Part shown: piece after piece, positions 29,681-35,000 of the stretch | Layout: each line of letters begins with the position of its first letter | How positions within the stretch are numbered: position 1 is the first letter of the stretch | Source of the DNA: Candidatus Aenigmatarchaeota archaeon | GTDB lineage: Archaea > Aenigmatarchaeota > Aenigmatarchaeia > CG10238-14 > SCSR01 | Assembly: GCA_039090665.1 (NCBI GenBank) | Contig: JAWCSL010000002.1 | Coordinates: forward strand, 1 to 64,000 | Reading direction: 5' to 3' | Length of the DNA: 64,000 bases | Program-made: the position numbers and the translations under genes | The notes under the pieces: generated by a model | Seen by the model: only the letters and a program-made list of their open reading frames with translations | Database searches by the model: none | Told to the model about the DNA's origin: nothing

Positions 29681-29709
29681 ATTTTCAAATATTGGATTAA
29701 AGAAATAAA

Positions 29710-29854
29710 AATGGGCCCGGAGGGATTTGAACCCTCGACCCTCCGCTTTCTTCTATTAGGAGCACTCCCATATAAGGCGGATGCTCCACCAGGCTAAGCT
29801 TCCCTCTACCAGTTAAGGCAGATACGGGCCCAGCCTAGATTTTCCGGGCCCATT
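29710..29854. repeat. Perfect 12-bp inverted repeat flanking tRNA-Ile (29710-29721 / 29843-29854)
   Basis: aatgggcccgga ... tccgggcccatt. Confidence 0.9.
29712..29831 (-). tRNA. tRNA-Ile(TAT) with two 23-nt introns: 9/10 (29800-29822) and 37/38 (29748-29770)
   Basis: Spliced 74-mer GGGCCCGTAGCTTAGCCTGGTGGAGCATCCGCCTTATAAGCGGAGGGTCGAGGGTTCAAATCCCTCCGGGCCCA folds as a full cloverleaf with discriminator A. Confidence 0.85.
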
Positions 29855-29983
29855 ATCCATGTATATTTTAAATTTCATTTTCCTTCCTTTATATCTTAAA
29901 CCTTAAACATTATAAATAGCAAAAACCTTAAATACTTACAGATAATATAAAAATTAGTCCATTCTTTGTTTGAGGTGTTAAAT

Positions 29984-33161: not shown

Positions 33162-35000
33162 ATGAATCCATTAAAAAATTTTATTAGGGCTCTTGTAGAA
33201 GGATATAGAAATCTTTCAATCGAAGAAAGTACACAAAAATCAATTGTTCTTGATCAACCTCAAATCCAGCCACTCAAAATTCCGGTAGAAGCAGTTCAAA
33301 AAATTGTGGTGGAATCTCCTGAACAACCGATCAAAATTCCTATCCAACCTGTCATCCAACCCATAGTTGTCCCGATAAAAACTGAAGAAGAAAAAGAAGA
33401 AAAAGAATTGGTAAAGGAGACAGAAGGTATAGAAATACCAAAATTTTCGCCAGCACTAGTTAAAACAGGTGAAATAGAAGAAGAGGAAAGAGAAAAAATA
33501 ACTTTAATTCAACCACTCATACCTAAAAAACCTCAGAAGGATGAACCGATTCTTGCCTATGCGAAAATTTATTGGGATGAAAAGGAAAACAGGCAAGTGT
33601 ATCAAGTAGTCGAACCGCCTTTAACCAACAAGCTAAAAGAAATTCTGAGGAAAGTGAAGGAAATCATGGAGCAGAAACTTGATGTAGAATTTTCAAGACT
33701 GAAAGTTTTGGAAGCAAAAGAATATTTGAGAAAACAGATTTCGGATATAGTCGGATATTTTGGTTTCAAGCTTTCTGAAACTGAAAAGCAGATATTGCAG
33801 TACTATATAGAAAGAGATTTCATGGGTTTGGGTAAAATTGAGCCCTTGATGAATGATGATCAAATAGAAGATATAAGTTGTGATGGAGTTAAAATTCCTG
33901 TTTTTGTTTTTCACAGAAATCCAGCTTTAGGATCTTTGATAACAAATGTTGTTTTCGAAAACGAGGAAGAACTTGATTCTTTTGTGATGAGATTGGCTCA
34001 GTTGTGTGGAAAATCAATTTCAATTACAAATCCTTTGCTTTCAGGCTCTCTTCCAGATGGAAGTAGAGTTCAAGCAACTTTAGCAACAGACATAGCAAGA
34101 AGAGGTAGCAACTTCACTATTAGAAAATTCACAGAAAAACCTTTGACACCCGTTCATCTCCTAGGCTATAAAACAGTTGATATAAAAACTTTAGCATATT
34201 TGTGGTTTGTTGTTGATATGGGAAAAAGTGTTTTGGTTTCTGGAGGAACTGCTTCAGGAAAAACAAGCATGTTGAATGTGCTTTCACTTTTCATAAGACC
34301 GGAACAAAAGATAGTTTCAATAGAAGACACACCAGAACTCAAATTACCTCATCCACACTGGGTTCCACATGTGGCTAGAACAGCAATTGGAACCGAATTT
34401 GGAAGAAAGCCAGGTGAAATAGATCTTTTTGATCTTTTGAAAGAAAGTTTGAGACAAAGACCAGATTATATAATAGTTGGTGAAGTTAGAGGAAAAGAAG
34501 CTTATGTACTTTTCCAAGAAATGGCCACAGGACATCCAAGCCTGGCTACAATTCATGCAGAAAATATATCAAAGTTACTCGATAGATTAACCACACCACC
34601 CATAAGCTTGCCACCCAGCCTTATTGCAAGCGTTGATGTGATAGTTTTTATGGTTTTAACAAGATATAGGAACAAACAAGTTAGAAGAGTTACCGAAATT
34701 TTAGAAGTTGTTGGTATAGACGAAAAAACAAAGACACCTATTTTCAACAAACTTTTCAAATGGAATCCAGTTTCAGATAGTTTTGATGTTTGTGGTAAAA
34801 GCTTTTTGTTGAAAAAAATCTCGGAGAGTACTGGATTGAGTGAGAAAGAAATCAAAGAAGAGTTGGAAAGAAGGATGCTAGTTTTGGATTGGCTACAAAC
34901 AAACAATATTTTGGAATATGAAGATTTCTGTCAAATCATAAACTCTTATTATAAGAATCCTTCCAGGCTTTTAGCTGCCATCAAGGGAGGACTTGGATGA
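33162..35000 (+). CDS. Type IV pilus assembly ATPase (CpaF/FlaI/VirB11 family)
   Basis: GGTASGKT, SIEDTPEL, LRQRPDYIIVGEVRG, TGH...TIHA. Confidence 0.92.
   Translation: MNPLKNFIRALVEGYRNLSIEESTQKSIVLDQPQIQPLKIPVEAVQKIVVESPEQPIKIPIQPVIQPIVVPIKTEEEKEEKELVKETEGIEIPKFSPALVKTGEIEEEEREKITLIQPLIPKKPQKDEPILAYAKIYWDEKENRQVYQVVEPPLTNKLKEILRKVKEIMEQKLDVEFSRLKVLEAKEYLRKQISDIVGYFGFKLSETEKQILQYYIERDFMGLGKIEPLMNDDQIEDISCDGVKIPVFVFHRNPALGSLITNVVFENEEELDSFVMRLAQLCGKSISITNPLLSGSLPDGSRVQATLATDIARRGSNFTIRKFTEKPLTPVHLLGYKTVDIKTLAYLWFVVDMGKSVLVSGGTASGKTSMLNVLSLFIRPEQKIVSIEDTPELKLPHPHWVPHVARTAIGTEFGRKPGEIDLFDLLKESLRQRPDYIIVGEVRGKEAYVLFQEMATGHPSLATIHAENISKLLDRLTTPPISLPPSLIASVDVIVFMVLTRYRNKQVRRVTEILEVVGIDEKTKTPIFNKLFKWNPVSDSFDVCGKSFLLKKISESTGLSEKEIKEELERRMLVLDWLQTNNILEYEDFCQIINSYYKNPSRLLAAIKGGLG

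Follow-up and report, generated by a model that had tools for sequence, protein, structure and literature searches.

We identified, within the leader of a tRNA-Ile(UAU) gene carrying two introns (29831-29712, minus strand, in the 64,000-nt stretch of DNA analysed here and referred to as the window), a spare copy of the gene's own 5' acceptor strand. Based on folding models, and with a probability that we place at roughly 55%, this copy acts as a cis-acting placeholder strand aiding removal of the gene's first intron, at 9/10, through its BHB splice signal. Introns near the 5' end of a tRNA create a folding conflict, as the same bases are needed to form both the splice signal and the acceptor stem; if the proposed reading is true, a built-in stand-in strand would offer a simple, RNA-only solution to this conflict. 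We infer that the spare strand, termed copy A, is transcribed in this gene and plays a role in vivo. The features of the locus, in the direction of transcription, are as follows.

29887..29897, minus strand: TATA-like box 1, AAGATATAAAG, which includes ATATAAAG (29894-29887), 43-47 nt before copy A.
29865..29872, minus strand: TATA-like box 2, TTTAAAAT, with copy A 21 nt and G1 41 nt downstream.
29843..29854, minus strand: copy A, the spare acceptor strand, AATGGGCCCGGA, read as AAU-GGGCCCG-GA, the exact complement of the tRNA 3' end.
29839..29842, minus strand: unpaired spacer AAAU in the MFE fold, joining copy A to the proximal leader.
29832..29838, minus strand: proximal leader CUAGGCU, complementary to D-loop A14-G20.
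29823..29831, minus strand: 5' exon G1-A9, GGGCCCGUA, termed copy B (G1 at 29831, G7 at 29825, U8 A9 at 29824-29823), placed by orthologue alignment and BHB enumeration.
29800..29822, minus strand: 23-nt intron at 9/10, with hairpin UCUGCC-UUAACU-GGUAGA (h'), GGG (H strand) and AA (bulge).
29771..29799, minus strand: exon 2, G10-A37 (G10 at 29799), with the D arm, 5' anticodon stem and anticodon UAU.
About 29748..29770, minus strand: canonical 37/38 intron of about 23 nt, its border ambiguous within an A run.
29712..29747, minus strand: exon 3, A38-A73, with the T arm, the 3' acceptor strand C66-C72 at 29719-29713, and A73 at 29712.
29710..29721, minus strand: partner of copy A, TCCGGGCCCATT, read as UC-CGGGCCC-AUU, comprising T-stem U64 C65, C66-C72, A73 and the first two U of the trailer.
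29700..29711, minus strand: U-rich trailer UUUUUAUUUCUU, which we take to be a likely archaeal oligo-T terminator.

The exon borders of the gene are fixed, because 17 orthologues lacking the first intron read uninterrupted across its site (GGGCCYG-UA-GCUUAGCC); an A at both borders of the intron makes 8/9 and 9/10 formally ambiguous. Excision of the introns yields a sequence matching these 17 orthologues, and the spliced form folds with a T arm and an acceptor stem. ARAGORN did not detect the tRNA-Ile gene and the Rfam tRNA model matched just 29712-29804, with a broken 5' acceptor strand, illustrating that tRNA finders blind to the leader mis-call or miss such genes. Neighbouring loci encode a lysyl-tRNA synthetase (LysRS) and a thermosome, and the host genome (G000; 620 kb, 90.6% complete) is represented by sequence in hot-spring metagenome runs, and a look through the listed runs turned up none of RNA. 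Across contigs from four DNA runs no variants were found in the leader or intron; these contigs displayed just branch points to the tRNA-Ile genes of other species. As a separate observation, the anticodon-loop introns of six tRNA genes in the host genome (C9:45746-45857, C1:35745-35851, C12:17153-17268, C12:31978-32080, C12:7759-7871 and C13:23315-23418) share a motif like GCUUUGAU(n)GAUGAAAGAAAC, which points to a single family of introns or to an element bound by protein (K-turn-like or box C/D-like).

Consistent with the perfect 12-nt complementarity claimed in the initial annotation, positions 29854-29843 were found to be the exact reverse complement of 29721-29710. Allowing up to one mismatch, the 12-mer occurs at these two places alone in the window, compared with an expectation of 0.05, and two or more occurrences were seen in none of 100 shuffles. 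Copy A thereby holds a second GGGCCCG, the 7-mer of the 5' acceptor strand, with 13 nt between the two 7-mers.

Enumeration of candidate splice signals placed the best BHB at cuts between GGGCCCGUA and UCUGCC and between AGAGGGAA and GCUUAGC, i.e. after A9 and before G10. The enumeration was brute-force and permissive, returning many weak candidates, among which the flanking helices of the 9/10 site are much the longest; no good motif was returned with copy A as exon. At the 9/10 site, three of the four central-helix pairs are formed (C4-G, C5-G and C6-G, with the intron GGG), G7.A being mismatched, and the cut sites lie in two 3-nt bulges (after A9 in U8 A9 U, and before G10 in A A G10). The outer helix h has 10 pairs (10-11 bp), formed by leader positions -7 to -1 plus G1-G3 (C4) with C11-G20 of the D arm, and the inner helix h' corresponds to the intron hairpin, with 5 pairs; both exceed the 2 bp expected as a minimum for helices flanking such bulges. 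The orthologue in a related genome, G001, retains this hairpin with a G.U pair replaced by G-C. That G1-G7 must vacate the acceptor stem for the BHB to form, as had been proposed from the sequence, is borne out by this arrangement, with C4-C6 engaged in the central helix and G1-G3 in the outer helix. Closer inspection also revealed a second half of the device, unremarked in the first reading: the proximal leader CUAGGCU pairs with the D loop and completes the outer helix. Of 200000 random 7-mers drawn at genome composition, 136 pair in full with the D loop. Leaders terminating in (C)UCCAGG, complementary to a D-loop CCUGGAG, were also observed in five iMet genes with D-stem introns (L039, L042, L045, L048 and L104, belonging to G023, G014, G004, G059 and one Aenigmatarchaeota record); outer BHB helices to which the leader contributes seem common in this order.

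Six precursors were folded, comprising tRNA-Ile from G000 and G001 and iMet from G000, G002, G003 and G006. In all six, the MFE structure combined copy A paired to the 3' strand with a formed BHB arm, and this fold was favoured over the best cloverleaf-type fold by 8-16 kcal/mol; the window precursor with copy A yielded a z-score of -4.13. For the window gene, the probability of the outer helix with copy A was 0.94 at 60 C, 0.76 at 75 C and 0.31 at 85 C, compared with 0.44, 0.01 and 0.00, respectively, without it, values which at such high temperatures use extrapolated energy parameters. Removal of copy A also raised the ordinary acceptor stem of the window gene to 0.96, and at 75 C left each of the six precursors with copy B paired to the 3' strand (probability 0.74-0.96) and a central-helix probability of at most 0.14. 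When the 12-mer was shuffled, the mean probability of helix h at 75 C was 0.19 versus 0.76 for the native sequence, a value reached by 2 of 60 shuffles. Modelled probabilities of the central helix are low (0.07-0.24). At 37 C the BHB arm of the tRNA-Ile precursors is still modelled to form when copy A is absent (favoured by 6.3 kcal/mol for G000 and 3.4 for G001), and three of the four iMet precursors without copy A do not form it; the proposed need for copy A therefore depends on growth temperature and on the extrapolated parameters. Folding with and without the leader, the comparison put forward in the initial annotation, hence supports a dependence of the BHB arm on copy A at 60-85 C and speaks against one for tRNA-Ile at 37 C. 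In the spliced molecule, copy A is modelled to retain the 3' strand (probability about 1 from 37 to 85 C, in a fold that outscores the cloverleaf by 11 kcal/mol). Such a clamp on the 3' strand means that an extra step would be needed before RNase P can act.

A mechanism may be drawn from these models in which copy A, sited at or near the former tRNA start and within the transcribed leader, would pair in the precursor over 12 bp with the 3' acceptor strand, discriminator A73 and the first two bases of the trailer, leaving the real 5' strand free. G1-G3 and seven leader bases would then pair with the D arm as the outer helix, and C4-C6 with the GGG close to the intron's 3' end as the central helix, the intron hairpin serving as inner helix. 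The predicted product is a relaxed hBHBh' motif, to be cut by the splicing endonuclease at 9/10. Copy A would in this way shift the folding equilibrium toward the splice-competent form, and would protect and position the 3' end. Splicing would come first and RNase P cleavage second; since the leader forms part of the outer helix, its removal would have to await splicing, and the order of processing would, if the mechanism is true, be fixed by this requirement. RNase P would presumably then capture a rare cloverleaf form and remove the whole leader. If true, the mechanism would also help to explain the viability of heavily interrupted tRNA genes in thermophiles with tiny genomes.

Both processing activities are represented in the host genome, which has an RNase P RNA gene (133 bits) and a single EndA gene (G000:C12:23808-24371; 188 aa) with both EndA domains. 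No EndA paralogue was found in the 90.6%-complete assembly. We observe, then, one EndA-like gene in a genome full of non-canonical introns; the available text of a previous report ties the cutting of relaxed or non-canonical BHB motifs to (alpha-beta)2 or epsilon2 endonucleases (PMC5829648).

Recurrence of the arrangement was examined in the host genome and its relatives. In the host genome, an extra exact copy of the 5' acceptor 7-mer lies upstream of both tRNAs with an acceptor-abutting intron (Ile at 9/10 and iMet at 7/8) and of none of the 35 other Rfam tRNA matches. The iMet gene (contig C11, about position 1211) comprises copy A (AGCGGGG), a spacer, a D-arm-pairing leader, copy B and a 7/8 intron with a perfect 4-bp central helix. 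For tRNA-Ile, a pattern scan of 117 genomes of the order identified the 9/10 intron in G000 and G001 only, six other matches corresponding to a different tRNA, and a metagenome scan recovered two contigs, neither differing from the G001 type over the part compared. The G001 gene keeps GGGCCUGGAG, which forms 10 bp with CUCCGGGCCC, including one G.U, and its spacer has diverged. A further tRNA-Ile(UAU) orthologue (L017, on G012:C1) was observed to carry a different intron of ~32 nt in the D stem (around 12/13), with no spare acceptor strand upstream.

Among iMet genes, the spare copy is kept in G002, G003/G005 and G006. The helix between iMet copy A and the 3' strand comprises 10 pairs, with 95% of alignment cells paired; one pair is AU in two sequences and GC in two, another has changed from AU to GU, and the terminal pair is broken in two of the four sequences. 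The co-variation amounts to a single event, and it counts as weak evidence because the -1:73 and -2:74 pairs are present also in intron-less iMet genes (e.g. L050 and L061) and may therefore be ancestral flank. A contig scan for two iMet 5' strands returned many bacterial chance matches, 5 of the 120 loci listed being archaeal iMet genes. At least two further Aenigmatarchaeota records with a spare copy were identified among the matches listed: L087, with a 7/8 intron, an 8-nt spacer and a modelled BHB that is lost without copy A, and L104, with a D-stem intron.

Across 28 parsed iMet loci, the spare copy accompanied every 7/8 intron (5/5), none of the D-stem introns (0/8) and 2 of 15 loci without a 5' intron. 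The central helix of 7/8 introns draws on acceptor bases throughout, whereas D-stem introns borrow just two or three. This distribution fits the placeholder model, since acceptor-abutting introns need most of the acceptor strand for their central helix. Spare copies without a 5' intron were found at L062, L057 and L142. In the first of these (iMet, G048:C1), AGCGAGG at promoter distance is followed by a 21-nt hairpin-like spacer and by AGCGAGA joined directly to U8, possibly a leftover of intron loss. The L057 iMet gene (G049:C1) has both of its ends doubled (5' AGCGGGG-UUUAU-AGCGGGG; 3' CCCCGCUA-UUAU-CCCGCUA) and an intron at the T-stem/acceptor junction, with none on the 5' side. A different construction was noted in the iMet gene L048 (G059:C40), which has a D-stem intron and a T-arm intron: its leader UGGGGUGGGA, 10 nt long, shows complementarity to the trailer UCCCACCCCA directly following the discriminator and does not duplicate the acceptor strand; a leader-trailer clamp thus seems to have arisen here by a second route.

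Beyond the host, we tentatively suggest that pseudo-acceptor strands in 5' leaders could form a general class of cis-acting folding helpers of archaeal pre-tRNAs, arising repeatedly at acceptor-abutting introns (7/8 and 9/10). Such strands might serve as heat-robust switches that impose a splicing-first order, and could explain the persistence of introns that destroy the acceptor stem.

Whether copy A enters the transcript depends on the promoter. The two TATA-like boxes of the window gene were located where the initial annotation had placed them. Judged by sequence, a start from box 1 would include copy A in the transcript and a start ~31 nt past box 2 would exclude it. Box 1 aligns with a box that intron-less genes within the genus carry 31-43 nt ahead of G1, box 2 sits at a normal promoter distance from G1, and the TATA spacing of the window gene is thus ambiguous. 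A de-novo motif search by EM over 35 tRNA upstream regions was confounded by AT-rich sequence at +1 and did not rank the two boxes. Related loci are more regular: the iMet genes of four genomes share a conserved AAGATTTAAAT box 31-33 nt ahead of copy A, and TTTAAAAT lies 31 nt before copy A in the tRNA-Ile gene of G001, the same spacing as that to the mature +1 in intron-less relatives (31-35 nt). In Thermofilum pendens, tRNA promoters are described 30-49 nt before mature ends, with longer distances flagging unusual precursors (PMC3218864). The claim that the leader captures the 3' acceptor strand and frees the 5' strand accordingly stands in part. Every computed fold and the recurrence of the arrangement agree with it; against it weigh box 2, which could exclude the element, the relatives with D-stem introns that have no copy, and the copies that occur without a 5' intron.

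In a serious, if less likely, rival, copy A would be a tolerated relic: the ancestral 5' end beside the promoter, left behind when a rearrangement placed a new copy of the 5' exon and the intron downstream, with no selected role and perhaps untranscribed in this gene. Promoter spacing places copy A where +1 lies in intron-less relatives, the AU flank preceding the iMet copy A matches the intron-less iMet flank, and copies persist without a 5' intron at the three loci described above. Also in line with a relic are the group of four changes at and beside copy A in G002 iMet, a box 2 that in the window would leave copy A out of the transcript, and the apparent hindrance that the copy presents after splicing. 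Conversely, copy A is kept while its flanks diverge (G003 versus G000 upstream; G000 versus G001 in the spacers), and the changes seen mostly preserve pairing (G.U, and AU to GC). Furthermore, the proximal leader has acquired 7-10 bp of pairing potential with the D arm, which implies that the leader is under RNA-level selection, and in G003/G005 the interval from copy A to copy B holds no other TATA-like box. Outside the 7-mer the two units are not significantly alike, the segments following copy A and copy B being matched equally well by 244 of 2000 shuffles for iMet and 1343 of 2000 for tRNA-Ile; a tandem-duplication origin of copy A was rejected on the same figures. An origin as a relic may in any case be compatible with later use as a placeholder.

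Far less probable is an integration (att) scar: a mobile element would have entered the 5' region of the tRNA gene, generating the duplicate, and would since have been lost by deletion. In Caldiarchaeum, directly repeated 5' fragments of a tRNA have been ascribed to mobile-element integration (PMC3293823), and in L142, from the Desulfurococcaceae, the tRNA 3' end recurs about 90 nt downstream. In the window, however, just 13 nt part the 7-mers, no integrase-sized ORF lies between the LysRS and thermosome neighbours, and the upstream region is collinear with intron-less relatives; a scar would also leave unexplained the complementarity to the discriminator, trailer and T stem, and that of the proximal leader to the D loop. 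Equally improbable is a role at the DNA level, with copy A kept around the old +1 as an initiator or initially transcribed promoter sequence. The fixed distance to a conserved TATA-like box in iMet and in tRNA-Ile of G001 would suit such a role, but the complementarity to the trailer and T stem and the differing spacing in the window gene would not be accounted for, and archaeal start sites are not, to our knowledge, under any strong sequence constraint. Least credible of all is that copy A is the true 5' exon, with a mature start at 29851 and the stretch from copy A to copy B a further intron: although the two 7-mers are identical and indistinguishable in the mature sequence, and promoter spacing suits copy A as +1, copy A is followed by GA in place of the U8 A9 of all 17 intron-less orthologues, enumeration gives no BHB with flanking helices that joins it to U8 or G10, the sole candidate cut after it (H 3/4, h 2, h' 2) falls inside the D loop, and the iMet copies are unable to pair with each other.

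The placeholder reading may be set beside several known forms of tRNA gene. Split tRNA genes with complementary leader and trailer sequences have been described in Nanoarchaeum equitans, Staphylothermus and Aeropyrum (PMC4090602, PMC4033280, PMC3218864), in which, as here, 12-14 GC-rich nucleotides lying beyond the mature tRNA pair elsewhere in the precursor, so that the BHB forms and the exon halves are held together; this pairing is kept by compensatory change between S. marinus and S. hellenicus (PMC3218864). The likeness to split tRNAs drawn in the initial annotation holds as an analogy and fails as membership, the present gene being contiguous and collinear. In the split genes, as far as the available accounts go, two transcripts meet in trans, and the helix, lying directly against the BHB, is removed by endonuclease cleavage. 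By contrast, the helix between copy A and the 3' end is separated from the BHB arm by a multiloop, with no cut site beside it, and the helper is a duplicate of the gene's own 5' strand which pairs with the mature 3' acceptor strand and is presumably removed by RNase P.

Circularly permuted tRNA genes are described in Cyanidioschyzon merolae (PMC3978253) and, for iMet and Tyr, in Thermofilum pendens (PMC3218864, PMC3728597); they likewise use a paired leader and trailer to build a processing structure. If box 1 is used, the window gene would also share with the T. pendens genes, as a clue, a promoter set unusually far from the mature 5' end. Unlike permuted genes, the tRNA-Ile halves are in their usual order and no circular intermediate is implied. 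In passing, we observed an iMet gene (L046; G047:C4, about 33313-33368 plus flanks) in which the part from position 11 to the 3' end comes first, followed by a 2-nt linker AA and then AGCGGGGUAG (positions 1-10), and whose leader CUACAGCUG is complementary to the trailer CAGCUGUA; from its sequence this gene looks circularly permuted. Within the parts of the literature surveyed, permuted archaeal tRNAs have been reported just from T. pendens (PMC3218864).

Turning to the intron itself, the 9/10 intron resembles non-canonical BHB introns in its relaxed hBHBh' motif, with exon bases that precede the cut supplying its central helix. Marck and Grosjean reportedly treated this kind of archaeal tRNA intron in 2003. 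Such introns are covered in later work (PMC4090602, PMC4033280, preprint 10.64898/2026.10.13.758758), and a central helix of three out of four pairs is counted as 'relaxed' in the last of these, a 2026 census of Asgard tRNA introns. The portions of these reports available to us hold no role for the 5' leader in building helix h and no spare acceptor strand, and in the census, to the same extent, the word 'leader' has 0 occurrences. The tRNA-Thr of Caldiarchaeum offers another parallel, as a copy of the tRNA 5' end is described upstream of a tRNA gene that gained introns (PMC3293823). That repeat flanks an element with a recombinase gene, according to the available description, whereas here the copies are 13 nt apart with nothing inserted, and pairing extends beyond the acceptor strand. 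Full-text searches of the literature, as far as its text was available, yielded no published description of a spare acceptor strand in a leader. Taken together, these comparisons indicate that leader-assisted BHB splicing probably gains a new variant in the tRNA-Ile gene of the window, in which the helper is a spare acceptor strand encoded in cis.
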